The notes beneath the pieces are model-generated. The model was given only the letters and a program-made list of their open reading frames with translations. It was not told where the DNA came from and made no database searches. Shown here one piece after another: positions 1,668-28,083 of a stretch of 28,083 bases of DNA; the stretch's first letter is position 1, and the number at the start of each line of letters is the position of its first letter. The translations under genes and the position numbers were made by a program. Origin of the DNA: a virus (lineage: Duplodnaviria; Heunggongvirae; Uroviricota; Caudoviricetes); the IMG/VR virus record IMGVR_UViG_2802429242_000010, positions 1 through 28,083 of that record. One strand, given 5' to 3'.

Positions 1668-2765
1668 ATGGCGTACTATAACATAGAGAAACGACTAAAA
1701 TCCGATGGCACACCACGCTATCGCTGTAATGTGATTATCAAAGAAAAAGGTGTTATCACTTACAGGGAAAGCAAAACATTCCCTAAACATGCCCATGCCA
1801 AAACATGGGGTACACAGAAAGTGATGGAATTAGATCTATATGGCATTCCATCATCAAATGCAGTCGACGGACTTACAGTCCGTGACTTACTACACAAATA
1901 TTTAAATGACCCAAATGCCGGAGGTAAAGCAGGCCGTACTAAAAGATATGTGCTGGAACTGCTTATGGATAGTGACATCTCCGCGATCAAACTATCCGAA
2001 CTGACAGAAAATGACGTAATTGAACATTGCAGGCTAAGAAACAACGCTGGTGCAGGTCCAGCAACAGTCAGCCACGATGTTAGTTATCTTGGCAGTGTTC
2101 TGGATGCGGCCAAACCTGTATACGGAATTAATTACACATCAAACCCGGCGAAAAGCGCTCGTCCATATCTACTTAAACTTGGTTTGATTGGTAAATCAAA
2201 CCGTCGTAATCGTAGACCAGCATCTGATGAACTGGACATGCTCATTGAAGGCCTTCAACAACGATCTACTCATAAATGCTCAAAAATTCCGTTCGTTGAT
2301 ATCCTCAAATTTTCTGTGTGGTCCTGTATGCGAATCGGAGAAGTATGCCGGTTACGATGGGAAGATCTCGACCAGGAACAAAAATCTATACTCGTAAGAG
2401 ACAGGAAAGATCCACGCAAAAAGGAAGGCAACCACATGAAAGTAGCCTTGCTTGGGGAAGCCTGGGATATCGTCCAACGACAGCCCCAAAAATCGGAATT
2501 CATTTTTCCATATAACAGCACTTCTGTTACTGCGGGATTTCAGAGGGTAAGAAGCAAATTAGGTATTAAAGATCTGCGATACCATGATTTGCGTAGAGAA
2601 GGGGCAAGTCGCTTATTTGAGGCTGGTTTTAGTATTGAGGAAGTCGCCCAAGTTACAGGGCATCGTTCATTAAACGTGCTATGGCAGGTATATACCGAAC
2701 TGTATCCGAAATCTTTACATAATCGTTTTGAAGAGCTCCAAAAGAGCAGAAATAAGACCTCTTAA
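1668..2765 (+). CDS. int: Tyrosine-type site-specific integrase (dusA-associated family)
   Basis: 365 aa. C-terminal catalytic region with R (RIGEVCRLRWEDLD), H-x-x-R (YHDLRREG) and the tyrosine region (GHRSLNVLWQVYTEL). Located directly beside the 5' end of dusA. Confidence 0.9.
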   Translation: MAYYNIEKRLKSDGTPRYRCNVIIKEKGVITYRESKTFPKHAHAKTWGTQKVMELDLYGIPSSNAVDGLTVRDLLHKYLNDPNAGGKAGRTKRYVLELLMDSDISAIKLSELTENDVIEHCRLRNNAGAGPATVSHDVSYLGSVLDAAKPVYGINYTSNPAKSARPYLLKLGLIGKSNRRNRRPASDELDMLIEGLQQRSTHKCSKIPFVDILKFSVWSCMRIGEVCRLRWEDLDQEQKSILVRDRKDPRKKEGNHMKVALLGEAWDIVQRQPQKSEFIFPYNSTSVTAGFQRVRSKLGIKDLRYHDLRREGASRLFEAGFSIEEVAQVTGHRSLNVLWQVYTELYPKSLHNRFEELQKSRNKTS

Positions 2766-2785
2766 CACTGTTTATCCATACAGTT
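2766..2785. promoter_or_regulatory. LexA (SOS) box 1 upstream of the dinI-like gene
   Basis: cACTGTttatccatACAGtt matches CTGT-N8-ACAG. Confidence 0.6.
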
Positions 2786-2793
2786 AAAAATAA

Positions 2794-2813
2794 TACTGTA
2801 TACAAACACAGTA
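2794..2813. promoter_or_regulatory. LexA (SOS) box 2 upstream of the dinI-like gene
   Basis: TACTGTatacaaacACAGTA is a close match to the TACTG(TA)5CAGTA consensus. Lies about 15 nt upstream of RBS AGAGGG and the ATG at 2827. Confidence 0.7.
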
Positions 2814-2826
2814 TAGAGGGACTTTT

Positions 2827-3075
2827 ATGCGTATTGAAATCTGCATAGCCAAAGAAAAAATGACTAAAATGCCAACCGGTGCTGTGGATGCGTTAAAGGA
2901 AGAATTAACCCGACGCATCAGTAAACGTTATGACGATGTAGAGGTGATCGTAAAAGCCACCAGCAACGATGGCCTTTCTATTACGCGCACCGCCGATAAA
3001 GATTCAGCTAAAACTTTTGTTCAGGAGACTCTGAAAGATACCTGGGAATCTGCTGACGAGTGGTTTGTTCACTAA
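2827..3075 (+). CDS. dinI: DinI-family DNA-damage-inducible protein (prophage copy)
   Basis: 82 aa, MRIEI...[16 protein letters not shown], which I recognise as DinI-like (DinI ends ...QETWESADDWFV). Preceded by two LexA boxes. Confidence 0.85.
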
Positions 3076-3242
3076 TTAACACGTAAAATCGGTAACGGCT
3101 GGAAATCATTCAATACTCGCACTATCGAAAGTTCGCCAGCCAGCCGCAGCACGTTCTTGCATACGACGTGGCTGCGGCTTCCAACATTAGACAAATAACT
3201 CTTTAAGTTGCCTTTAAATTAATACCAGCACCGCGCCGGATG

Positions 3243-3683
3243 TCATCTGGCCTGAACTGCCGGAGGCGTAGGCCATTCAATATCTGGAGCACTGGAGGTA
3301 TCAACCAGTTCCAGTGCGTCCAGATAATCCAGCCACAAATTATATTGCGCCAGTTCCTCACCTTTCAGACGACCAATAGCTGCTTTACCTGGCCATTGCC
3401 TGTTATTCATGTGCTCATTGGCAGTATCTATGCGCCGCTGACGCTCGTATTCTGCCATCTTTATCAGTTCTTCAGGTGCCAGTGGCGGAATATCACTCCA
3501 TACGGGATAACCATCATCACCCGCAATCCTCATTTTTCCCTCCGGTGGCTTCTGAAATGCAGAAAAAGTTTCTTCATCAACCTCCACGCCTTTTTCTGGC
3601 CATAACCCCACGGATTCATAATGTAATTTCAAAGCCAACGGATAGAAGGCGTTAGTTTTTGCATCATAAATATATTTGTTCAT
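3243..3683 (-). CDS. Tail fiber assembly protein (Tfa-like chaperone)
   Basis: 146 aa, directly downstream of the tail fiber gene. C-terminal region with the NLWLDYLDAL-type motif typical of Tfa proteins. Confidence 0.8.
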   Translation of the reverse strand: MNKYIYDAKTNAFYPLALKLHYESVGLWPEKGVEVDEETFSAFQKPPEGKMRIAGDDGYPVWSDIPPLAPEELIKMAEYERQRRIDTANEHMNNRQWPGKAAIGRLKGEELAQYNLWLDYLDALELVDTSSAPDIEWPTPPAVQAR

Positions 3684-3685
3684 TT

Positions 3686-4327
3686 TTATTTCCCTATTGC
3701 AATCCAGTTAGCGCCAGCACCCGTTCCGCCAGTACGAGAACTCATTAAATAAAATGCAAGTAGTCCGCCTCCTGCCGGAGTTGTCGCAAAGGCAGGGCAA
3801 TCTGTCGCACCGTTAATTGCACTGTCAAAAGACGTGGCAATACGATAACCAGATGTAAAAGGAATCGGGAAGTTAACAGTTGTTGGATAGCCGATTGGCC
3901 CTGCAATACTGACGCCAAACTGTATGATTGTACCATCCGGAAATTTCATCCAGCCTGGCCCCGACGTGAAGCTAGCCATATCCGGGATCTGATTTACCCC
4001 GGTTCCAACCTCCCGTTTTGCCGCTTCTCCCAAACCAAGGTTTTCGAGAGCCGTTTTCACCGTGCCGTCCGATTTGATATCGCCAAACGGATTTTTGCGG
4101 CTTAACAGTAGCGCACTAAGCGCGGTAAGCAGCTGGTCGTGCCGCCCCTTCTCCAGGCTGGCACCGGATGCCTCCACCACGCCGCAAAGCTCCTCCTGCA
4201 ACATGTCAAAGTAGTCATCATCCAGATCGGTGGCAGGTGTGCCGGTCTGGGGGTTACCACGGGTAAAACCGTTCTTACCCGCGCCGAACTTATCCTTCTG
4301 CGCGGTTTTCGTGTCTATACGATGCAT
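3686..4327 (-). CDS. Tail fiber protein (short, 213 aa)
   Basis: Position between baseplate genes and tfa. N-terminus [46 protein letters not shown] resembles conserved tail-fiber N-termini; Gly-rich C-terminal tip. Confidence 0.65.
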
Positions 4328-4330
4328 GGA

Positions 4331-4915
4331 TTACTCCGGATATTTAAAAATTACGTAGGTATGCGACGGGCAGAGTTTGTTAAGCACACACTCGACAACG
4401 GTGTCGCCCCAGATACGCAGCGCGGAATCACAGGGATCGCCACATGTCATCCAGGTGGTGTTGGTGGCAGCTGGCATGTTGACCTGCCAGTAATACCGCC
4501 ATTCCGGCGCGTTCACAGCGTCAGTACAGGCCGATGAGCAGGTGAACGTGCTTTTGTCGTATCGCGTGATGGTAGCGTCTGGTCTGCCCAGGGCAGCAAG
4601 CTGTGCAAGGTAAAAATCCTCATTGATGCCGCCCGCCAGGTTAACCTTCGCATCCAGTCGTTGCTGACGCTGGCGAAGGGTCTGTGTCCCTGCGGGAATA
4701 CATTCATCCGGCAGGCCGCACAGACGCTCCCAGCGATTTATCAGTTCGGTGGTGGTGCGCGGATCCAGCTCCCGCATCAGGGCATCCGCACGCTGATGAA
4801 CGCGGGTTAATGACGGTGCCGCACCGGCAATCGCCGGATCGCTGGCTGACCACGCCGGACCGGGCGGCAACAGTGCTGACAACAGACGGATGTAATCATC
4901 GTTTGTCACGTCCAT
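4331..4915 (-). CDS. Tail/baseplate protein (Mu gp48-like, DUF2313-type)
   Basis: 194 aa; position and overlap with the upstream baseplate J-like gene; family assignment from memory of Mu-like tail clusters. Confidence 0.6.
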
Positions 4916-5964
4916 GAAATCGCCCCCAGAACCGCCAGTTCATTTTTCGCAATGGTGATATTGTCCGCCGGAGCAAGCAACTGATGGCTGTATTCCCCGT
5001 TCGCACCGGAAATCGCTTCACTGATACGCGACACCTTCAGTTCTCCCTGCGGATAACCATCACGCAGCAGGAACGAACGCAACTCGGCGGTGATGGCAGC
5101 CCGTATTTCCGGTGTATCCGGCGTCACACGGATATGAAAATCCACCGTATGTGCCACCGGCCTGAACACATACAAATCAGAGCCTGCCACCGGGGCCAGT
5201 GGCTCGATATGTTGTCTTGCCGCCGTTTCCGTTGATTCTTCCGGAATGGGATTAATCAGGTCACTGCTGGCAATCATCACACCGACAGTTCCCGTTCCCA
5301 TCCAGTGACGGTATGTCCATGCGCGGGTAATACCGGGCACTTCTTTAGCCCAGACTACATAGTCCCCGTCAGCCCCGCCCTGCGGCGTCCAGTAATACCG
5401 CTCAATGACGCGGGCGCGCCACGTTTCCAGCTCTTCAGTATCAAATCCGCCTGTCAGGGTGTCAGCCACACCGGAAGACGGCAGACCATTCACCGGCGTG
5501 ACCAGGATTAATGCCGTACCGTCGTCAGCGTTACCGACCGCGCCTGCATTTGAGCAGGCGATCGGCACGCGCAGGACACCACCGGAGCTGGTTGCATCGG
5601 CAGTTGCAGTATACTGAACCAGGTCATCGCGCTGAATAACACTCCCGGCGGTCACCTTCAGGCCATCGCTGACACCTTCCCAGCGCATATACCCGCTGGC
5701 AGCCGTGGCCCCCTTGCGCGGACACCGTTTCATCGCAGCATGTCGCGCCAGCCAGGACTCATCGCACAGGTCAGGCAGCATGTTCATTGCCAGATAATCG
5801 ATGTACCCGTAAACCGTATGCAGCGCCGCCGCATACACCTTTGCCCGCACGTCTTCATCCATGCGCCGGAGCGTGTCGCTGACGTCCAGCCTGGCGAATA
5901 AATCGTTACGGAGCATACTGATATTTTCTGCCAGCGTCGGGCGCTGAAATTCACTGTCCGCCAT
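4906..5964 (-). CDS. Baseplate J-like protein (Mu gp47-like)
   Basis: 352 aa; size and position in the baseplate cluster, overlapping neighbours on both sides (translational coupling). Confidence 0.75.
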
Positions 5965-6379
5965 GCGTTATCGCACTCCACAGATCATCAAAAGAAATCA
6001 TTACCGGTCCGTCACGACGCCAGAGAGTGATACTGTTACCCAGTTCATTAATCCCGGTGCGGCGGATATCCAGATCAATACGGGACACCACGCCGTCATC
6101 AATCATCCATTGCAGGCATTCGCGGATATATCCCCTTACCGTCTGCACCAGTTGATTGGTCAGTTTGCTGCGCTGAAGCAGCCACAGTCGGGAGCCGTAA
6201 CGGTCATTCTGTACCGCAGGCCAGGTATCCCCCCACCATCCCATCGGGACGTCGGCATTGTCATCAGGCTCCGCCCGCCGCCAGGTGAACAGGGAAATCA
6301 CCACGGCGCGGGTCAGCGGATCCAGCGGTGCGCTGGCGCAGGTGCGTTTACCGTTCACCGTCAGCCACAGTTCCATCAT
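5951..6379 (-). CDS. Baseplate protein (Mu gp46-like)
   Basis: 142 aa; conserved position between the spike and baseplate J genes; 4-nt overlap with the upstream gene. Confidence 0.65.
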   Translation of the reverse strand: MMELWLTVNGKRTCASAPLDPLTRAVVISLFTWRRAEPDDNADVPMGWWGDTWPAVQNDRYGSRLWLLQRSKLTNQLVQTVRGYIRECLQWMIDDGVVSRIDLDIRRTGINELGNSITLWRRDGPVMISFDDLWSAITHGGQ

Positions 6380-19257: not shown

Positions 19258-19360
19258 CGGACAGCATCAGAGCCGGAGCCATACCAAACTGCAGGTAAAC
19301 CCCGCACGTAAGCAGGCCAAAACCAGCCAGCCCGATAACATCAGCAATTAGTGATTTCAT
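19199..19360 (-). CDS. Possible small membrane protein (53 aa) between terminase and portal
   Basis: Not in the ORF track (under 60 aa). ATG overlaps the terL stop (ATGA). Translation [53 protein letters not shown] has two hydrophobic helices. Fills the terL-portal gap. Confidence 0.3.
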
Positions 19361-21090
19361 AGAATTAAGAGATCATCGTCCGGATCAAGAGATGAGAGGA
19401 AATCGTCAGGTTCTTTGAGCATTGCCCGACCGATCGTCATAATCAGTGCAACCGCACCATCGATTTTGTTTTCCGCCTGCTCCTTGACGGGCTTCACTAA
19501 ATCATCGTTACCTGGCATGTTTTTGCCGACCACATTGCCGATACACCAGGTCATGATGGGATTGCCGTCATGATGAAAGCGTCCCGATTCAATCGCTGCT
19601 TCCAGCTCTTTCATCGGATCGGACATATTGGCGAAGTTCTGGACGATAGTGACGGGATTCAGATCTTCATCAGCAAGGTCATGTGACAGCCCGGTCGCCC
19701 CGAAGGGGTCGATGGGTGACTCACTGACCGGGCTGATTTTGTTCGCCGCTTTGGCCTCTTCGAGGATGTAGCGATAATCCACCTCTGCACCATCGGTAAC
19801 GGTCAGGACGCCCATTTCCACCCATTTCTGAAAGCGTTCGGCGGTCCGGCGATCTTCATTTTTCTCGACGCTGTACACCGTGTCATACGGTACCCAGAAA
19901 CGCGGGGCCACACTGTAGTAATGCGTTTTACCGTCAATCTCGCGGGTATAAAGTCGCGCCATGCTGTTCATATCCAGCTTACGCGCCAGGTCAAAGGCCA
20001 GAATGCACGGCTGCCCCTCGAACTGCTCAAGGGTCAGTGATTTATCCTCGCAGCTCTGCCAGCTCACCAGGTTGAAATACGCCGAACGCGCCGACACCCA
20101 GATATTGAGGTGTTTTGTTTTAAAGACGTTTGCCAGACGGGCGTTATTTTTCGCACGTTGCTGCTGGCTTAACAAAAACTCGCGATAAACCGACACACCG
20201 ATATTCGGGTTAGCTTTTTCAAGTATCTGCGGGTCGGTCCAGTCGTCGCCTTCGTCAACGGTATAGATGATCCCGAACAGTTCATCGTTGGGCACCGAGC
20301 CGTTGAGCATCTCGATGACTTCCCGCCGTTTGTCGTAGCACGGCCCCTCAATGTTGTACCCGGCGGTGGTAATGGCCCACATCAGTGGCTGGCGTCGCGC
20401 CCCCATCCCGGTAAGCATTGTGGTATAAAGCGCATCGGTGGCATGCTCGTGATATTCATCAACCACGGCACAGTGGGGTGATGAACCATCACCGGGGTTG
20501 CCGATCAGCGGTTCAAACCGCGCGCCATCCTCCGGACGGTTCATGTTTGAGGCGTTAACCTCAATCCCGAACGCTTCCGTCAGCATGGGTGTGCGTTTAC
20601 ACATCAGTCGCGCCGGACGAAAGACTTCCCACGCCTGTTTCTCTGTCGTGGCACCGGAATACACTTCCGCGCCAAACTCGTTATCACAGGCAAAACAATA
20701 CAGGGCAACACCGGCAGAGATTGCCGATTTGCCGTTCTTACGGGGGATTTCGGTATACACCTCCCTGAAGCGGCGCAGCCGGGAGCCTTTATTGACCCAG
20801 CCAAACGCACAGCAGATCACAAATAGCTGCCACGGCTCCAGCGTGATGGGCATCCGTTTGAATGCCCACTCACCCTTGGTGTGCGGCAACAGCTGAATAA
20901 ATTTCGCGGCCCGTTCAGCCAGGTCCTTGTCGAAGCGGTAACGAAACGACTTACTTTTTTCCGCCATCAGGTCATCAAGATGGCGCTGGCAGGCCTGAAT
21001 CACAAACTGGCAGGCCACAATCTTTCCGCGCACGACATCACGGGCATACTGATTGGCAGCATTTACGTTGGGGTAAGATTTCCGGCTCAT
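19357..21090 (-). CDS. Terminase large subunit
   Basis: 577 aa; N-terminal ATPase region and C-terminal nuclease-type acidic motifs; start overlaps the terS stop (ATGA). Confidence 0.9.
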
Positions 21091-21581
21091 GATTCGATGA
21101 TTTTCAGAAACGGGTTAGTGGCTTTCTTCTGCCCCGCCAGGCCAATCAGACGCTGGCGGCTGCTGGGGTCGAGTCCGAGCATTGCCCCCGTGCTGCTCAT
21201 CTCGGACTCCTGTTCTTTTTTGGCGGTCAGCTCCGGATTTTTGACCCTGCCGCCCATTGCGCCGGTGATGGTGTTGCCCTGTATGGCAATATTTTTCACG
21301 GCACGTCGCCAGAACTCATAGGCCACGCACCACCGCTCAAGCACCGCGAGGTCAGTCACGCACAGCAGGCCCTGACCGCAGAGTTCTTTGGTTGTCAGTT
21401 GCCACATGATCGTGGCGAGAGGGAGATCTTCTTCAGCGAACCACTCCGGTGGCTCAACACCTTTGATGGGCGTAAAAACAGGTTCATCTTTGTTCAGGGC
21501 TCGCTTGCCGGGGTTTCCGGCCAGCGCCTTGCGCGCCGTTGGCTTGGGGCGACGCCCGGAACGCCCCGCCGTTCCAGCCAT
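21087..21581 (-). CDS. Terminase small subunit (P27-like family)
   Basis: Basic N-terminus ([29 protein letters not shown]) typical of P27-family TerS. Start placed at ATG with AGGAG 8 nt upstream; the track start at 21590 is a GTG. Confidence 0.75.
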
Positions 21582-21590
21582 ATGCGGCAC

Positions 21591-21706: not shown

Positions 21707-22057
21707 TCACTTAAGTCGTTCACGGGCCGTCTTCGCCTTATGACACGGCCAGCACAGACTCTGCAGATTACAGTCGGCATCAGTGCCGCCATGCGCTTTA
21801 GGGATGATGTGGTCAACGGTTTTCGCCTCACGCACCACACCAGCACGCAGACATAACTGACACAGGCCTTTGTCACGCTTCAGGACACCCGCGCGGATAC
21901 TGTCCCACTTCGAACCATAACCGCGCTGATGACGGGATTGTCCTGGCTTGTATTGCTTCCAGCCCTCGCTTTTGTGGCTTTCGCAATAGCCTGACGGATC
22001 AGTCGTGGTATTGCGGCAACCGCGAAAACGGCAGGCTTTTGGGGTTCGTGGTGGCAT
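21707..22057 (-). CDS. HNH endonuclease (terminase-associated)
   Basis: 116 aa; N-terminal Cys cluster (CRFRGC...C) and HNH core (DHIIPKAHGGTDADCNLQSLCWPCHKAK). RBS GAGGGG 5 nt upstream. Confidence 0.85.
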   Translation of the reverse strand: MPPRTPKACRFRGCRNTTTDPSGYCESHKSEGWKQYKPGQSRHQRGYGSKWDSIRAGVLKRDKGLCQLCLRAGVVREAKTVDHIIPKAHGGTDADCNLQSLCWPCHKAKTARERLK

Positions 22058-22092: not shown

Positions 22093-22116
22093 AAAAAAGC
22101 CTCGCATTAGCGAGGC
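22093..22116 (-). terminator. Intrinsic terminator (minus strand) downstream of the 74-aa ORF
   Basis: Minus-strand transcript has GCCUCGC-uaau-GCGAGGC followed by UUUUUU (plus-strand A-run about 22093..22098). Confidence 0.6.
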
Positions 22117-22223
22117 TCGTTTATATCTTGAAGGTGAATACTTATTGTCTTATCTATCCACGGGAAACATTAAGATTATTACACCCGTTAGTTGGGAAAT
22201 AAAACAAAATGCAGGTGGTTTAT

Positions 22224-22448
22224 TTATTCTTTGCTGATTGCTTTCTGAATGGCATCGGCTAATGGTTCAATTAAGCCAATAGCTGCTTTTAATTCCTGTT
22301 CAAATTTTGCACTTGTAGCCTGACCACCTGCAGAAGAAAGTGAGGCCTTAACTAATTCAAGGGCAGCTTGAACAGCTATAACCCTCTGTTTTTGAGCTTG
22401 AGTTACAGGCTGAGCACCTATTCCTGAAGGGAAATAATTCTCTAACAT
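22224..22448 (-). CDS. Hypothetical small Ala/Gln-rich protein (74 aa)
   Basis: Good RBS (GGAGG, 5-nt spacing) and a terminator downstream; predicted helical, no recognisable family; in an AT-rich stretch. Confidence 0.5.
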   Translation of the reverse strand: MLENYFPSGIGAQPVTQAQKQRVIAVQAALELVKASLSSAGGQATSAKFEQELKAAIGLIEPLADAIQKAISKE

Positions 22449-22715
22449 TACAACCTCCGTATTAAAAAGTGAGGTTACACATTACCCTTAAGATTACTCT
22501 TAGTGAAGAGGTATCTCATAATTATCACCCTTACCAATAACGCTTGATGAAATTTGTAATGGACTGGCTCTTATTTCAACGCAACCACTTACCGCGCGCC
22601 AGATGCTTAACCTCAAACATTAGCAATGAGATGTTTAATCTGAATCCACTCCAGAAGTAATCACCACTCTGTCTACAGGGCCTGATGTGAAGGATGATGA
22701 GTAAAATTATCGCTA

Positions 22716-23177
22716 TCATCGAAGGCATTGCGTCCTGATGTACTCCTGCAGGTAGTTAACCTGTGCGGTTATCCTGTCGATTCCACTTCGGAGACGGTAA
22801 TAATTGAGTTCAGCATCTGCTGTAAGTCCTGGGCTTTCTCCATCGCCCATGCCGCTGGCTCCGGTCGTTGACTTTGCACAGGTGGCGGCGACTTGCAGGC
22901 GCTTACGCCCAGCAGAAACATCAGCACGGAGACTTTCGATAGTCGCGTTAGCATCAGCAAGCTCCTTTGTGTATCTGGCGTCAAGTTCTGCTACGTCACG
23001 TTGACGCTTCTGCATATCAGAGATAGTCGCCATAGCCGAATCTAATGCCATAGCATTCTCATCACGCTGCTTTTTGTATTCGATGGCTTTGCTGTGGTAA
23101 TAATTTGCTGAACAGATAAAAGAACCAATGACAGTAACGAAGAATGCAGCGATAACCAGCTTATAGCTCAACTTCAT
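22716..23177 (-). CDS. Rz: Spanin inner-membrane subunit (Rz-like i-spanin)
   Basis: 153 aa; N-terminal TM helix, coiled-coil periplasmic domain and C-terminal Cys; clearly similar to lambda Rz as I recall it (YKAQRD..., MQxRQRDVAxLDAxYTKELADA...). Confidence 0.85.
   Translation of the reverse strand: MKLSYKLVIAAFFVTVIGSFICSANYYHSKAIEYKKQRDENAMALDSAMATISDMQKRQRDVAELDARYTKELADANATIESLRADVSAGRKRLQVAATCAKSTTGASGMGDGESPGLTADAELNYYRLRSGIDRITAQVNYLQEYIRTQCLR
22769..22954 (-). CDS. Rz1: Spanin outer-membrane lipoprotein subunit (Rz1-like o-spanin), embedded in Rz in another frame
   Basis: Start at internal Met giving MLTRLSKVSVLMFLLGVSAC|KSPPPVQSQRPEPAAW...; lipobox V-S-A-C followed by a Pro-rich segment; fully inside the Rz gene in a different frame, as in lambda. 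Confidence 0.7.
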   Translation of the reverse strand: MLTRLSKVSVLMFLLGVSACKSPPPVQSQRPEPAAWAMEKAQDLQQMLNSIITVSEVESTG

Positions 23178-23637
23178 TTACCACCCCGCCAGCCTCTTTG
23201 AATCGGGCAATCAGGTCACCGATTTTATGTTCATACTGACCGTAACCAGCGCCCGGCAGTGAAGCCCAGATATTGCTGCAACGATCGATAGCCTGACGAA
23301 TATCGCCGCGATCAATCATCGGTAAAGCGCCACGCTCTTTAATCTGCTGCAATGCCACAGCATCCTGGCTTTTTGGAGAGAAGTCTTTCAGCCCAAGCTG
23401 CTTGCGGTAAGCATCCCACCAGCGTGAAAGAAGTTGATAACGGCCTGCAGCTGTTGATTTGAGTTTGGGGTTTAGCGTGACAAGTTTGCGAGGGTGATCG
23501 GAGTAATCAGTGAACAGTTCGCCACCAACAATAACATCATAACCGTGGTTACGTGTCGGTTGTCGCCCGTTATCCGTTCCTTCTGACCATGCCACCATAT
23601 CAAGGAAAGCTTTACGCTGGGAATTTAGTGCCTGCAT
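23161..23637 (-). CDS. R: Endolysin, lambda R-type lytic transglycosylase
   Basis: 158 aa, near-identical over long stretches to lambda R as I recall it (QRKAFLDM.AWSEGTDNGRQ.TRNHGYDVIVGGELFTDYSDHPRKLVTLNPKLKST.AGRYQLLSRWWDAYRKQLGLKDFSPKSQDAVALQQIKERGALPMIDRGDIRQAIDRCSNIWASLPGAGYGQ). Confidence 0.9.
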   Translation of the reverse strand: MQALNSQRKAFLDMVAWSEGTDNGRQPTRNHGYDVIVGGELFTDYSDHPRKLVTLNPKLKSTAAGRYQLLSRWWDAYRKQLGLKDFSPKSQDAVALQQIKERGALPMIDRGDIRQAIDRCSNIWASLPGAGYGQYEHKIGDLIARFKEAGGVVNEVEL

Positions 23638-23640
23638 AAA

Positions 23641-23967
23641 TTACTCCTTAGAGCCACCAAACTTATTACCGATTACTCGCATTGCAGCCCCACGAATAGC
23701 ATCGACCCCGATCAGCCCAACGCCGCCACCAATGGCAACAGAAAGAGATTTAGGCCATCCGACATACTCAAGAGCGGATGCAAAAGTCAGCGTCAGAGCA
23801 CCACAGAGCAAAATCTCGAGCGTTTTTCGTTTCCAGCCACCACCACCGCCAAAATAGGCAATACGTAAACCAGCCATAACGATCGACATAATCACTGCGC
23901 CCAGCGGTGTGTCTCCACGCCACCAGCTCTGGACCAACTCCAGCCAAGTATTTGGGTTATGAGGCAT
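23641..23967 (-). CDS. S: Holin (class I, lambda S-like)
   Basis: 108 aa, three predicted TM segments and charged C-terminus; immediately upstream of the R/Rz/Rz1 genes. Confidence 0.8.
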   Translation of the reverse strand: MPHNPNTWLELVQSWWRGDTPLGAVIMSIVMAGLRIAYFGGGGGWKRKTLEILLCGALTLTFASALEYVGWPKSLSVAIGGGVGLIGVDAIRGAAMRVIGNKFGGSKE

Positions 23968-24107
23968 TTGTAGTTATCTCTCACCTCGCTAATACAGCAG
24001 GTGCAAATTGAGGGAACATCGTGTACCGCAAATCAGAAGCGGAAACGTCAAAGAAGCCGAACCAATGGATAACTGCGGAATAGGCAAGGACCAACGAATC
24101 CCCAGCC

Positions 24108-24141
24108 CCAGAAACGACAAAACCCGCTCGACGGCGGGTTT
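24108..24141 (-). terminator. Candidate intrinsic terminator (minus strand) about 140 nt upstream of the holin gene, possibly a tR'-like element
   Basis: Minus-strand AAACCCGC-cgucga-GCGGGUUU followed by a U-rich tract (UGUCGUUUC). Confidence 0.4.
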
Positions 24142-24186
24142 AAGCTGTGTGGCGAAGTAACCACTCTTAACAGATTACAATGTTTT

Positions 24187-24215
24187 TTGCGTACGCGTTA
24201 GCATTTTCGTAAAAT
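24187..24215 (+). promoter_or_regulatory. Candidate sigma-70 promoter for the ATPase-methyltransferase cassette
   Basis: TTGCGT (-35), 17-nt spacer, TAAAAT (-10), about 30 nt upstream of the ATG at 24247. Confidence 0.35.
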
Positions 24216-24246
24216 ACATTACCTTGCAACCATTTCAGTATAAAAA

Positions 24247-26037
24247 ATGAGCACAGAATTAAAACTAAAGAAAATTATGGCATCGTCTAAAATTGAGCCA
24301 TTTATTAGACATATTCGTTTTCCTTTTTTTAAAAACCTTGCAGAGGGTAGCAAGATTGATTTTGAGTATCCAATTACAGCATTAGTTGGTCAAAACGGGA
24401 CCAATAAAAGTTCTGTTTTAAGAGCCCTATTCGGTTCTCCAAACAACTATTCTCTGGGTAGCTTATGGTTTTCTACAGATGTAGATGAGATTAAAGATGG
24501 TGGTCGTTCTAGATTTATTTATGGATATTATGACAAAGCTACTGATTCAATTGTTGAAGTAATTAAAACTCGAATCTCTAAAGAAAATGATCCTGATTAC
24601 TGGGAACCATCCAGACCATTAAAATCCGACAACATGGCTCCAATGCCTAGTACAAAAATCTCAACCAATCAACTAAGGACTAGGTGGAAAGCTATTGACA
24701 AAAATGTAATATATTTAGATTTCAGAGCAACTATCAGTGCATTTGATAAGTTCTTTTATCACTCTGATTTTCATACATACCCTAAGAAAGATTATCTTAG
24801 AAAACGCAGTCAGATGCTAAAAGACATTATAGATAACGATCTTAAAAAATATCAACCTCATAAAGGAAAAAAAGACAAGCTATTTGTTAACACTTTATTA
24901 GAAAAAAGTAAGGTAGAGGCAATCAGCAAGATTTTAGGTCGCAAATACACAAGCATCCGCCTTATTGAACATAGCTTATTCACTAATGACAAAGCTCCCA
25001 CAATTATTCTTCAATCAGAAAACTTAAAATATTCTGAAGCTTTCGCAGGCAGTGGGGAATTTGCTGTATCTATATTAGTGCATAAACTAATGGATAGCCC
25101 TGATGCATCTTTAATTCTGCTAGATGAACCTGAAGTATCACTTCACCCTTCTGCTCAATGTCAATTGATGGAATTTTTATCAGAACAAGCACTTAAAAAG
25201 AAACATCAAATTGTCATATCCACACATTCATCAACAATAGTAAAAGACTTGCCTAAAAATGCCATAAAATTATTCTGTCTGAATGATAAAGTAGGAAAGG
25301 TTGATGTTCTTCAAAATGTCAGCCCAGAAGAATCTTTCTTTATTCTTGGTGAACGCATTGATAAAAGAACCGTTATTGTAGAAGATCGGTTAGCGAAGAG
25401 GTTTGTAGAAAAGGCGCTTAAAGCGGGTGGTGAAGCATTATTAAACTCCTTCGAAGTAAAACATGTTCCTGGAGGAGCGGGAAGTATTCTTCAAACTTTG
25501 GCTGTGCCTTTATGTGTTGCCAATGTTAAAAACGTTATTTTCTTATTAGATGGTGACCAATCGAGAACTGATGATTATCCAACTTCTGATTCCATACCAG
25601 AAAATCAAAACACAAACCTTCAAAACATCATAAAAGAAATAACCAATCAAGATATAAAATTTAGTTGTGATGGTTCTAATGGCTCATCAAATAACAATCA
25701 AAAATACAAAATGCAAAGAAATTTTATCGATTTCATCCACGATAAAATTGCTTTTCTTCCTGTTTATACTCCTGAAGCATTTCTTATTGAGAATGTTCAT
25801 GGTGATTATAAAGAATATAAAGATCAAATCCCCAAAAACATTCAAGATGCTAAAGAAATCACCAAAGAACTTTGTAAGTTAGACACAGGGTTGGAGAACG
25901 TTACCAGTGACGATATCTTTGAAACACAAATCAGAATTCTTAATAAAATACCAAATAATCATGAAGTGTTAACAAAAACTCGAGAGTTGCTGCAAATCTT
26001 TTTAGATAATGATACTATCAGACCAAGAGTGAGGTAG
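24247..26037 (+). CDS. P-loop ATPase with Toprim-like C-terminal region (OLD / PARIS-like architecture); candidate ATP-dependent nuclease
   Basis: 596 aa. N-terminal Walker A (ALVGQNGTNKSSVL), ABC-like region (FAGSGEFA), Walker B (LILLDEPEVSLHP) and H-loop-like VISTHS. C-terminal half has Toprim-like acidic motifs (TVIVEDRLAKRF and NVIFLLDGDQ). Strongly AT-rich. Domain calls are by-eye motif recognition. Confidence 0.6.
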   Translation: MSTELKLKKIMASSKIEPFIRHIRFPFFKNLAEGSKIDFEYPITALVGQNGTNKSSVLRALFGSPNNYSLGSLWFSTDVDEIKDGGRSRFIYGYYDKATDSIVEVIKTRISKENDPDYWEPSRPLKSDNMAPMPSTKISTNQLRTRWKAIDKNVIYLDFRATISAFDKFFYHSDFHTYPKKDYLRKRSQMLKDIIDNDLKKYQPHKGKKDKLFVNTLLEKSKVEAISKILGRKYTSIRLIEHSLFTNDKAPTIILQSENLKYSEAFAGSGEFAVSILVHKLMDSPDASLILLDEPEVSLHPSAQCQLMEFLSEQALKKKHQIVISTHSSTIVKDLPKNAIKLFCLNDKVGKVDVLQNVSPEESFFILGERIDKRTVIVEDRLAKRFVEKALKAGGEALLNSFEVKHVPGGAGSILQTLAVPLCVANVKNVIFLLDGDQSRTDDYPTSDSIPENQNTNLQNIIKEITNQDIKFSCDGSNGSSNNNQKYKMQRNFIDFIHDKIAFLPVYTPEAFLIENVHGDYKEYKDQIPKNIQDAKEITKELCKLDTGLENVTSDDIFETQIRILNKIPNNHEVLTKTRELLQIFLDNDTIRPRVR

Positions 26038-26040
26038 ATA

Positions 26041-27081
26041 ATGGCTAAAAAGATACACGTTTACGATTTCTTTTCCGGCTGCGGCGGAACCAGTGTAGGC
26101 CTAAAAGCGGTGGGAATGGAAATTATTTTCGGTTTAGATATTGATCTAGACTCCGCTAACACCTTTAAAATGAATAATCCATTTGCACATTTTATCAATG
26201 GTGATATCAAAGATACACACGTTGAGGAAATTAAGCATCTGGTTTGTGCGTCAACACAAAGCAAAGCTCTAACCCTTTTTTGTGGTTGTGCTCCATGTCA
26301 ACCATTCTCGAAACAAAATAAAATACGGAACGAGGATGATCCGAGAAAAGATCTGCTTACTGAGTTTGCACGGTTTGTCTCTTATTATACGCCAGACTTT
26401 GTACTGGTAGAGAATGTACCAGGAATCCAAAATGTCGATATTAACAATGGAAATTTCCAGAAATTTCTTGAGGTTTTAGCACATCATCACTACAACGTTG
26501 ATTTTGGTGTGATTCCTGCGTTGTGGTTCGGGGTTCCTCAAACACGTGAACGTTTTGTTTTACTGGCGTCAAAACACACGAATATTAAGCTTCCATCACA
26601 AACTCATGATGGATTAAAAACTCCGTATGCAACTGTCAGAGACTGGATCGGCGGATTACCTCCTATTGCTGCCGGTGAAACTCATAAAGATGTTATGGAT
26701 CATACAGCAGCCAAACTATCTGATCTAAATATTAAACGTATTAAAGCGACTCCTGAGGGAAAAGGTAGAGAATCTTGGCCTGAAGAACTTATACTAAAAT
26801 GCCATAAAAAATATAAAGGGCATACTGATGTTTATGGACGGCTTTCTTGGGACAAACCAGCAAGTGGATTAACAACTAGATGTATAAGCTATTCGAATGG
26901 ACGTTTCGGACATCCAGAGCAAGATAGGGCTATTTCTGTTAGAGAGGCTGCGTTATTACAGACTTTCCCATTAGACTATTCCTTCACAGGCTCTTTAGTC
27001 TCGAAAGCCAAACAGATAGGGAATGCAGTCCCTCCCAAGATGGCTGAAGCTCTTGGAAGGGCTATCATCGCATCACTTTAA
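26041..27081 (+). CDS. DNA (cytosine-5)-methyltransferase
   Basis: 346 aa with canonical C5-MTase motifs in order: I FSGCGG, IV PCQPFS (catalytic Cys), VI ENV, VIII QTRERF, X GNAVPP. Starts 3 nt after the ATPase stop (operon-like). Confidence 0.9.
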   Translation: MAKKIHVYDFFSGCGGTSVGLKAVGMEIIFGLDIDLDSANTFKMNNPFAHFINGDIKDTHVEEIKHLVCASTQSKALTLFCGCAPCQPFSKQNKIRNEDDPRKDLLTEFARFVSYYTPDFVLVENVPGIQNVDINNGNFQKFLEVLAHHHYNVDFGVIPALWFGVPQTRERFVLLASKHTNIKLPSQTHDGLKTPYATVRDWIGGLPPIAAGETHKDVMDHTAAKLSDLNIKRIKATPEGKGRESWPEELILKCHKKYKGHTDVYGRLSWDKPASGLTTRCISYSNGRFGHPEQDRAISVREAALLQTFPLDYSFTGSLVSKAKQIGNAVPPKMAEALGRAIIASL

Positions 27082-27091
27082 AAGCGGAGCC

Positions 27092-27445
27092 CTAGAGGGC
27101 TTCGCCTAACAATAATAGAATACCTGATATAAACCCTATAGCTCCCTGAAGCTCTTTTCTAATTGCTCCATCAGAGCATTTTCTTTTCTTAGCAATGGTG
27201 CGTAATGAGATACCAATCACAAAATGAGCAATGATCAGCTCATATTCTTCTGGTTTATACTTCCGCAGGCGGGCGACACAGCCATCAATCATGATGCCTT
27301 CATCATCATCGCACTGAATCCGGGACTTTCTGCCATGAGGTAAAAGCCCCTTGAAGCCAGCGGCTACCGGTTGCCAATCCACACCACTGTTCTCTGCCGC
27401 AGCCCACGCTCCCCAACGGTCTAATACTTCATACATATCACACAT
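27092..27445 (-). CDS. Q: Late-gene antitermination protein Q (phage 82 / DLP12 QuuD-like family)
   Basis: About 117 aa from ATG with RBS GGAG upstream; similar to the QuuD-type Q protein I recall (..LERWGAWAA...AAGFKGL...CDDD..I..GC.ARL...). Located upstream of the lysis cassette on the same strand. Confidence 0.75.
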   Translation of the reverse strand: MCDMYEVLDRWGAWAAAENSGVDWQPVAAGFKGLLPHGRKSRIQCDDDEGIMIDGCVARLRKYKPEEYELIIAHFVIGISLRTIAKKRKCSDGAIRKELQGAIGFISGILLLLGEAL

Positions 27446-27462
27446 CAACTTTCTCCACCAAA

Positions 27463-28083
27463 TCAGGCTAGCACACCAATTGCCAACGCACGGTCGATAA
27501 AACGAAATATCAGCTCCAGCTGGGAGCCATACTTCTCTTCAAATGCCACGGTATCCGCATGCAGCTCGTCGTGATGCTTTCTGCACAAAGGCAACACAAA
27601 GAGATCATGCGCTTTTGTACCCATTCCACCCTGACCGTGGCCTATCAGGTGGTGGGGATCATCAGCGGGCTTTCCACAACATGCACACGGCTGTGTCTTA
27701 ACCCAGCGCGTGTACTTTTCATTAACCCAGCGGCGACGTTTTGGGCGTAACATAAAAGACTCCGGCGACTCCGGATCCACTTCCAGCGCCAGCACTTTTT
27801 TCGCTTTATCCTGGATGATGCTGGTGGCAGGAACCGAAGGCACAAGGTCACTTTCCCGGGTAACAGACGGCACAACAGGCTTCGGTAATCTAAGTGCCTT
27901 ACGGGCTGCACTTTCCGGTAAGGCATCCGCCAGGTCATTACGAATCAGCCACCAGCACAGTTCCGGCATTGTCACAACGTGACTGTCATCAAAACCGAGA
28001 TCCCGACGCACAACAGACAACACCCAGCGGGCACAGTTATCCGTTGCCATTGATTCCAGCCGTTCCGTGAACTGATCACGCAA
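27463..28083 (-). CDS. DUF968-like lambdoid-prophage protein, N-terminally truncated by the window edge
   Basis: ORF runs to the window end (first displayed codon is TTG, so the true start is outside). C-terminal Cys/His-rich motif CACCGKPADDPHHLIGHGQGG...LPLCRKHHDELH. 14 nt upstream of Q on the same strand. Confidence 0.65.
   Translation of the reverse strand: MRDQFTERLESMATDNCARWVLSVVRRDLGFDDSHVVTMPELCWWLIRNDLADALPESAARKALRLPKPVVPSVTRESDLVPSVPATSIIQDKAKKVLALEVDPESPESFMLRPKRRRWVNEKYTRWVKTQPCACCGKPADDPHHLIGHGQGGMGTKAHDLFVLPLCRKHHDELHADTVAFEEKYGSQLELIFRFIDRALAIGVLA

Follow-up and report, generated by a model that had tools for sequence, protein, structure and literature searches.

The late-control unit of the prophage held in the IMG/VR virus record IMGVR_UViG_2802429242_000010 is most probably located in a conserved element of ~96 nt in the noncoding gap upstream of the holin gene, and not in the DNA adjacent to the antiterminator gene Q. 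This conclusion comes from reading the Q-to-holin region in a stretch of 28,083 nt (hereafter the window), with Escherichia coli as the host context and with the late genes on the minus strand throughout. In lambda-type phages, the usual place of the late promoter pR' is immediately downstream of Q. The original prediction had offered two ways out of the crowded arrangement seen here, namely that the late promoter was displaced by about 3 kb into a compact divergent control region shared with an antisense gene cassette, or that the late transcripts run antisense through that cassette. The former was corroborated by the finding that the element follows Q in cargo-free relatives, resembles the phage 21 unit in layout, and carries the predicted -35 hexamer of the cargo promoter. 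The features on which the argument turns are as follows.

27092..27445 (ATG) or 27448 (TTG), minus strand: Q antiterminator gene, 117 or 118 residues, PF06530
26041..27081, plus strand: second gene of the cargo, a C5 cytosine DNA methyltransferase (PF00145, E=3e-59; PADLOC MTase_II, E=7e-91)
24247..26037, plus strand: ABC/OLD-like ATPase, first cargo gene (AAA_15/AAA_21; RefSeq 'ATP-dependent nuclease')
24110..24205, minus strand: conserved element of ~96 nt, the core shared among relatives
23968..24246, no strand: noncoding gap of 279 nt
23641..23967, minus strand: lambda-family holin, first late gene (PF05106, E=6e-25; RefSeq name)

The coordinates of the open reading frames (ORFs) verified that the Q stop lies 10 nt from the convergent methyltransferase stop, and that upstream of the holin gene no noncoding DNA exists other than the 279-nt gap, both as originally stated. 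Between Q and the holin stands the 2.9-kb cassette, in antisense orientation relative to the late genes, and the distance from the Q stop to the element, which occurs once in the window, is 2886 nt.

The product of 27092..27445 matched Phage_antitermQ (PF06530) with 148.7 bits (cutoff 26; E=8.8e-44), a family into which the Q protein of phage 21 (Q21) falls as well (87.4 bits, E=8.8e-25). It also matched the Q21 PDB chains 6P18 and 6JNX (E=0.003 across residues 9-87), and it shares 27% identity with Q21 (BLASTP, E=9e-8) and 47% with QuuD, the Q protein of DLP12, a cryptic prophage of K-12. By these similarities, the gene is indeed a Q, that is, an antiterminator of the Q21/QuuD family with a predicted activity at its cognate site; the ATG at 27445 is the start annotated by RefSeq in identical copies. 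Close relatives of the window Q showed weak matches to region 4 of ECF sigma factors, in keeping with the reported sigma-R4-like fold of Q21 (bioRxiv 10.1101/651190).

Comparison of the 279-nt gap with phage genomes yielded 363 matching records, most of which share a core of ~75-95 nt (window 24110..24205), and the 96-nt element was found in 2465 of the 5426 complete E. coli genomes, being annotated in none. Where no cargo is present, the element adjoins Q: the match begins 16 nt past the Q stop in the Stx2-converting phage Stx2_14040 and at the very next base in phage 1720a-02, hence 0-16 nt from the stop in the two cargo-free Stx2 phages (loci L007 and L092); the gap amounts to 0-4 nt in these two loci, compared with 2886 nt in the window. 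The 80 IMG/VR loci with the nearest Q proteins (83-100% identity) included 76 that extended as far as the element, all of which carry a cargo-filled gap of 620-3746 nt between Q and the element; the other four loci did not reach the element. These gaps fall into ~29 distinct lengths or classes with a GC content of 0.30-0.40, and their ORFs are antisense in all but two classes. One to three genes also stand between Q and the element in E. coli F404, A65EC, Stx2a_1447, Lambda_4C10, 434B, PA-2, SfII, mEp460, and a Stx1a phage. As judged from these comparisons, the Q clade of the window normally has cargo inserted between Q and the element, and the framing of the cassette as an unusual insertion did not survive the 76 occupied loci together with nmpC of DLP12 and lc of PA-2.

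The two borders of the exchangeable DNA were informative as to which partner the element belongs with. Strain G1/2 and three more genomes contain the same Q, cassette, and element, but continue into other late DNA that encodes, among other genes, a truncated methylase and three tRNAs, and their homology to the window stops right after the terminator stem; the holin-proximal 140 nt go with the holin type. The position of this breakpoint, just past the terminator, indicated that the element travels with Q and not with the holin. On the other side, homology among the cargo classes ends within Q, right after a GF(I/V)xG motif, such that the last 8-14 residues vary with the cargo class (27092..27130, ~12 codons; loci L001-L087) and the rest of Q is 83-100% conserved. 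By the alignment, a recombination breakpoint of the cargo slot thus sits inside the Q coding sequence, and no conserved Q-adjacent DNA is therefore left for a late promoter. The variability of the Q C-terminus was unexpected, given that the C-terminal residues of Q21 contact RNA polymerase.

To describe the anatomy of the element, its columns were counted over 42 unique variants, giving the assignments below.

24201..24196, minus strand: weak -35 candidate CTAACG (3/6 consensus positions, 18-nt spacer)
24195..24178, minus strand: candidate Q-binding spacer CGTACGCAAAAA, by positional analogy with the Q-binding element of phage 21
24177..24172, minus strand: predicted late -10 hexamer TAATCT
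24149..24171, minus strand: invariant discriminator and initially transcribed block GTTAAGAGTGGTTACTTCGCCAC, from the alignment and column counts
24110..24141, minus strand: intrinsic terminator, analogue of tR' (stem 24141..24120, T-tract 24119..24110)

In the hexamer at 24177..24172, T was found in 40 and A in all 42 of the variants, followed by three variable positions carrying 0.5-0.8 bits and by a T that is again universal (42/42); within the alignment, this T-A-n-n-n-T column pattern is the signature of a -10 hexamer. The late start is predicted near A24165 with an uncertainty of ~5 nt, an imprecision that weighs somewhat against the assignment and stems from the overlapping register CATTGT (24182..24177). 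This second register would put TAAGAG at +2, as TAAGCT is placed in phage 21, and was rejected upon its failure in the DLP12-type element and in L066, L028, and L029. We hold the exact hexamers and the start as predicted with moderate confidence, lower than that in the location of the unit itself.

Upstream of the -10 hexamer, the columns 24194..24185 (GTACGCAAAA) were invariant or almost so. The spacer sequence goes with the Q clade, reading CGCGTACGCAAAAA in the window, GCGGTCCGCAAAAA next to a Q of 126 aa, and TACGTACGTAAAAAA where the Q is QuuD. By analogy of position, the conserved spacer is a candidate for the Q-binding element, and the invariant block that follows the hexamer is presumed to be the pause or Q-loading region. 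A predicted RNA hairpin in this block (GUGGU...GCCAC) was discarded, as the variants showed no compensatory changes.

The terminator comprises a stem of 8 pairs followed by TGTCGTTTCT, and the RNA that starts at A24165 and ends there is predicted to be ~47-55 nt long. The minus-strand terminator-like hairpin of the original prediction was confirmed in both its stem and its T-tract. By itself, this hairpin is within chance (11 terminator-like sites against 4.1 expected in the region; fold z-score, -0.8), and it was taken as real because the 96-nt element that holds it is widely conserved. Furthermore, in L068, L081, and L029 its place is taken by unrelated hairpins with T-tracts, indicating that termination is the conserved function at this distance.

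On these grounds, we propose that the element contains a sigma-70 promoter composed of the conserved -10, the weak -35, and the Q-binding spacer between them. In the lysogen, transcripts from this promoter would end at the terminator ~50 nt downstream. Upon induction, Q would be made from its gene 2.9 kb upstream of the element and, as a diffusible protein, would load onto RNA polymerase at the element, and the Q-loaded polymerase would then pass the terminator and transcribe the holin, lysozyme, Rz, and terminase genes. Since Q is diffusible, its separation from the site should not matter; adjacency to Q is a custom of lambdoid genomes and no mechanistic requirement. What we propose is therefore antitermination of the ordinary Q-dependent kind, acting at a site that is displaced and yet standard. 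The cassette would be transcribed away from the late genes by means of TTGCGT, supplied by the element, and TAAAAT, supplied by the cassette, and its transcription would end at a hairpin overlapping the Q stop codon.

The closest precedent is phage 21, in which the mechanism of Q has been solved. Its unit, as given by the experimentally based annotation of the genome record, is listed here in the coordinates of locus L089.

3000: phage 21 Q stop
3007..3012: -35 TTGACA
3015..3030: Q-binding element (a pair of 8-bp repeats that takes up the spacer)
3030..3035: -10
3042: start site
3043..3049: sigma-dependent pause element
3044..3091: terminator

Both Q proteins belong to PF06530, and the compact unit of phage 21 (85 nt) and that predicted in the window (~96 nt) have promoter, spacer, start site, and terminator in the same order, with the lysis genes next to them; the terminated RNA of phage 21 is ~50 nt, with the terminator end near +50. 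The units differ in that the phage 21 unit lies 7 nt after the Q stop as opposed to 2.9 kb, and combines a consensus -35 with a poor -10, whereas the window has a poor -35 and a better -10. In addition, the window Q is 44 residues shorter than Q21, and no sequence similarity of the window unit was established to the phage 21 Q-binding element, defined as ATTGAGCA AATGAGCA, or to its TAAGCT pause element.

The quuD - nmpC (lc) - essD module of DLP12, PA-2, and 434B provides a second comparison, as it combines a Q of the same family with the same element upstream of the holin and an antisense lysogenic-conversion gene in between. The original prediction had suggested an alignment with DLP12, among others, as a way to locate the late promoter; in DLP12, the element is found upstream of essD, beyond nmpC, with its anchor at 577223..577237 of MG1655. 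In the DLP12 type, however, the cargo encodes a porin, whose own promoter region lies several hundred bases away from the element, and a sigma-E-type start is present as well, while the window has a two-gene cassette whose ATG lies ~42 nt from the element and which would use TTGCGT of the element as its -35; the spacers also differ (TACGTACGTAAAAAA and CGCGTACGCAAAAA, respectively). Functional relevance is given by 434B, a plaque-forming derivative of phage 434 in which Q, the late promoter, and the lysis genes were swapped for a DLP12 segment (PMC9119081). In this segment, nmpC::IS5 stands between Q and the element, and from the formation of plaques with this layout we infer that a Q of the PF06530 family works across kilobases of antisense cargo. 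The isolated phages SfII and mEp460 and Stx phages show the same layout.

Several observations weigh against the proposed unit. The -35 candidate is poor (CTAACG, 3/6), and the simple consensus scan called no promoter at the element; by eye, the original prediction had seen no convincing -35/-10 pair for the late promoter either. The first ~25 transcribed bases contain no convincing -10-like sigma-dependent pause element, the majority sequence having TACTTC and no TAnnnT, and a few variants having TACTTT. The spacer may be conserved for the sake of the cargo promoter no less than for Q binding. No mapped transcript 5' or 3' end for the element was found in the sources within reach, and E. coli Term-seq lists no transcript end around 577220..577289 or for essD. 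Moreover, a DLP12 reporter fragment from the literature (-121 to +650) corresponds to MG1655 576753..577518 and implies a start at ~576874, ~350 nt upstream of the element, so that other promoters can feed the DLP12 lysis operon. Next to this start, GAACT-16-TCACT in porin-specific DNA (576841..576874; ~5842..5875 of locus L088) resembles a sigma-E promoter. A sigma-E promoter would fit the start at ~576874, in line with the cited RpoE regulation, and this start neither confirms nor contradicts a pR'-type promoter in the element.

Doubts of this kind lend their substance to the reading that the element is only a terminator plus a cargo promoter insulating a moron slot, with the late genes expressed by early antiterminated read-through or from another promoter, and with Q acting elsewhere or as an activator. 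The weak late -35, the missing pause element, the coincidence of the most conserved upstream bases with the -35 of the cargo promoter, the sigma-E-type start that serves the DLP12 lysis operon from upstream of the element, and a CRP site annotated within the invariant block in the PA-2 record would all be accommodated by it. We nonetheless regard this reading as improbable, as TAnnnT and the invariant block are kept directly after Q in cargo-free phages, the late-strand T-A-n-n-n-T pattern is left unexplained by a cargo promoter on the opposite strand, the layout fits the mapped phage 21 unit, and the element stays with Q in genomes that carry other late genes. The CRP site was likewise rejected as an explanation of the invariant block, which the cargo-free phages also keep.

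A late promoter with its qut site located in or beside the 3'-terminal part of Q or of the methyltransferase gene, from which late transcripts would run antisense through the cassette and silence it by interference, is a weaker contender, and we consider it very unlikely. With the two stops 10 nt apart, any Q-adjacent promoter would have to fall in coding DNA, and a precedent of a sort exists in phi80, in which Q expression reduced the amount of a defence protein whose gene lies antisense within the late operon (PMC11364771). Against this, the simple consensus scan detected no sigma-70-like site on the minus strand over 24856..28083, which covers Q and the 3' end of the methyltransferase gene, and the five minus-strand sites in the AT-rich ATPase gene were not above shuffled sequences (9 found, 10.8 expected). 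The DNA past the last 8-14 Q codons differs in every cargo class, a hairpin and a U-run follow the Q stop, and in cargo-free relatives the DNA after Q is the element, of which the window holds its single copy elsewhere. Late transcription through the cassette is also unneeded, the predicted late start being downstream of the cassette, and no support for it was found; antisense transcription of the cassette could arise only if early transcripts continued beyond Q. The promoter scan found no site in 23968..24110, which separates the terminator from the holin gene. Least credible of all is a decayed prophage in which an insertion uncoupled Q from the lysis genes and left no working late control. 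The exact cassette is present in just 8 of the 5426 complete E. coli genomes, which would suit such an accident, but every ORF is intact from Q through the large terminase subunit, plaque-forming phages (SfII, mEp460, 434B, and Stx phages) share the layout with other cargo, and the Q-to-lysozyme segment is 99.6-99.7% identical in four unrelated strains and four IMG/VR contigs, with matching gene calls of these copies in RefSeq.

If the element combines a late promoter that is constitutively active with a terminator behind it, as preferred here, it would yield a short RNA in the lysogen, which recalls StxS and the lambda 6S RNA, short RNAs that start from pR' and end at tR' in lysogens (PMC7547250). 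StxS itself was rejected as the identity of the predicted RNA: it belongs to the clade with a 144-aa Q and is processed from 258 nt to 74 nt over a pR'-tR' interval of 258 nt. The window RNA is predicted at ~50 nt, shares no sequence with StxS, and has no Rfam match; a search of the whole window against Rfam gave none at the gathering score and only chance-level matches at 23900..24300.

The other strand of the element bears on the expression of the cargo, for which the following promoter is predicted.

24187..24215, plus strand: predicted cargo promoter (-35 TTGCGT at 24187..24192, 17-nt spacer, -10 TAAAAT at 24210..24215)

The predicted cargo start is at ~24222, 25 nt ahead of the ATPase ATG at 24247. 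Its -35 lies inside the element, and its -10 lies in cassette-specific DNA. TTGCGT was kept in 37 of the 42 variants, and in 40 of the 42 a hexamer with A2 and T6 was present 16-18 nt away, despite the unrelated cargo DNA that supplies it; the chance frequency is ~33%, and the matching hexamers mostly stand at exactly 17 nt and start with TA. The predicted late and cargo starts are ~57 bp apart with interdigitating -35 regions, so that polymerases could hardly occupy both promoters simultaneously, any regulatory coupling being conjectural. In the cargo-free phages L007 (2986..3030) and L092, an outward promoter half TTGCGG with TACTTT 18 nt on faces the 3' end of Q and could yield an anti-Q RNA, reminiscent of lambda paQ.

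A bolder extension, which we put forward as a speculation that is rather unlikely, sees the element as a universal docking site with back-to-back overlapping promoters, one for the late genes and one completed by the cargo, such that Q-driven late transcription shuts off the defence cargo. If this were true and polymerase binding were mutually exclusive, the defence cargo would be turned off at induction without antisense read-through, and the anti-Q RNA of the cargo-free phages could represent the ancestral role of the outward promoter. Prophage defence genes would then be subject to a built-in, cargo-independent timing in almost half of the complete E. coli genomes.

Regarding the cassette itself, the profile matches of the ATPase in PADLOC (HEC-04, E=1e-36; ATPase-Toprim_I-B, E=7e-25), together with the GC content of 30-40% at 24247..27081 on the plus strand in comparison with ~50% in both flanks, characterize the ATPase and C5-methylase pair as a horizontally acquired moron of the defence type, whose anti-phage role is predicted from the profile matches. 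The same cassette occurs in four IMG/VR contigs, and a more distant version in one more. Its distal end carries a further feature.

27082..27107, no strand: hairpin between the convergent Q and methyltransferase genes, overlapping the Q stop, with UUUUAAAG next on the Q-sense strand

This hairpin has a minimum free energy of -16.7 kcal/mol (z=-2.7) and is without a U-tract on the cargo strand. In most cargo classes, a GC-rich hairpin separates the stop of Q from the convergent stop of the cargo, and the related cassette of L081 keeps the Q/methyltransferase hairpin by one compensatory change from G-C to A-T. It is likely a terminator or an insulator.

In the other cargo classes, the largest proteins include PD-Lambda-5_A (E=5e-75), PDC-M53A, a protein with a RelA/SpoT domain (PADLOC PDC-S33, E=2e-114), one with a caspase domain, one with a metallo-beta-lactamase fold, and a STAND NTPase that joins calcineurin-phosphoesterase and NACHT domains. 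Porins (nmpC, lc) are the classical occupants. From these contents, the Q-to-element slot is a hotspot of lysogenic conversion and defence, of which the ATPase and methylase cassette is a rare occupant. Antisense genes between Q and S have reportedly been known since the work on PA-2 lc and DLP12 nmpC, and the GenBank record J02580 (PA-2) already displays the order Q - antisense lc - late genes. PD-Lambda-5 is an experimentally validated system (PMC9519451), and the concepts of the moron and of the defence hotspot in prophages are well established (PMC9122126, PMC9519451, PMC11364771). As with lambda bor/lom, the P2/P4 hotspots, and phi80 Tai, a low-GC, exchangeable, defence-rich block is placed here between genes that are adjacent in relatives. 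Morons have their own promoter and terminator, which are only predicted for the cargo of the window, and, unlike morons in general, the slot parts a regulator gene from its own target site. Of the crossovers of the slot, one lies in the last codons of the regulator and the other in the element, which would give half of the cargo promoter. Within the literature covered, which was partial, no statement was found that places the QuuD-type late promoter beyond the cargo and no description of the conserved element or of shared promoter halves; a full-text search with the element core sequence returned no paper containing it.

The genes around this region completed the picture.

27463..28083, minus strand: DUF968 / HNHc_6 gene, cut by the window end (330 residues in relatives)
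23161..23637, minus strand: lysozyme, after the holin (RefSeq name)
22716..23177, minus strand: Rz (PF03245, E=1e-38)

The DUF968 / HNHc_6 gene accompanies the Q clade of the window directly upstream of Q in nearly all loci, and is mislabelled 'antitermination protein Q' in some phage records. A 71-aa ORF at 22769..22984 (minus strand), nested out of frame in Rz and showing a lipobox-like LLGVSAC, is probably the Rz1 o-spanin. A further low-GC stretch (22100..22700, ~39-40%) lies between Rz and an HNH endonuclease gene and contains a 74-aa ORF at 22224..22448 (minus strand) with no Pfam match; this stretch may be another small moron. The HNH endonuclease gene (21707..22057, minus strand) is just upstream of the genes for the small (21087..21590, minus strand) and large (19357..21090, minus strand) terminase subunits, an order typical of HK97-like cos packaging modules.

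In several Shiga-toxin phages, the element was also found to precede stx1AB or stx2AB, including L093 (Stx1_14040, 1972..5979), L003 (Stx2a_1447), L007, and L092, some of which have three antisense ORFs between Q and the element and others none.

For the window, the findings mean that the odd gene order is a standard functional layout and not damage. More broadly, the gap between Q and the late promoter in lambdoid prophages of the Q21/QuuD type is a busy exchange site for defence-type genes. Given its position upstream of stx1 or stx2 in some phages, the promoter and terminator of the element bear on toxin expression, and the element would be the unit governing it in those Shiga-toxin phages. 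It would likewise serve as a landmark for the annotation of late promoters and for the mining of prophage cargo.

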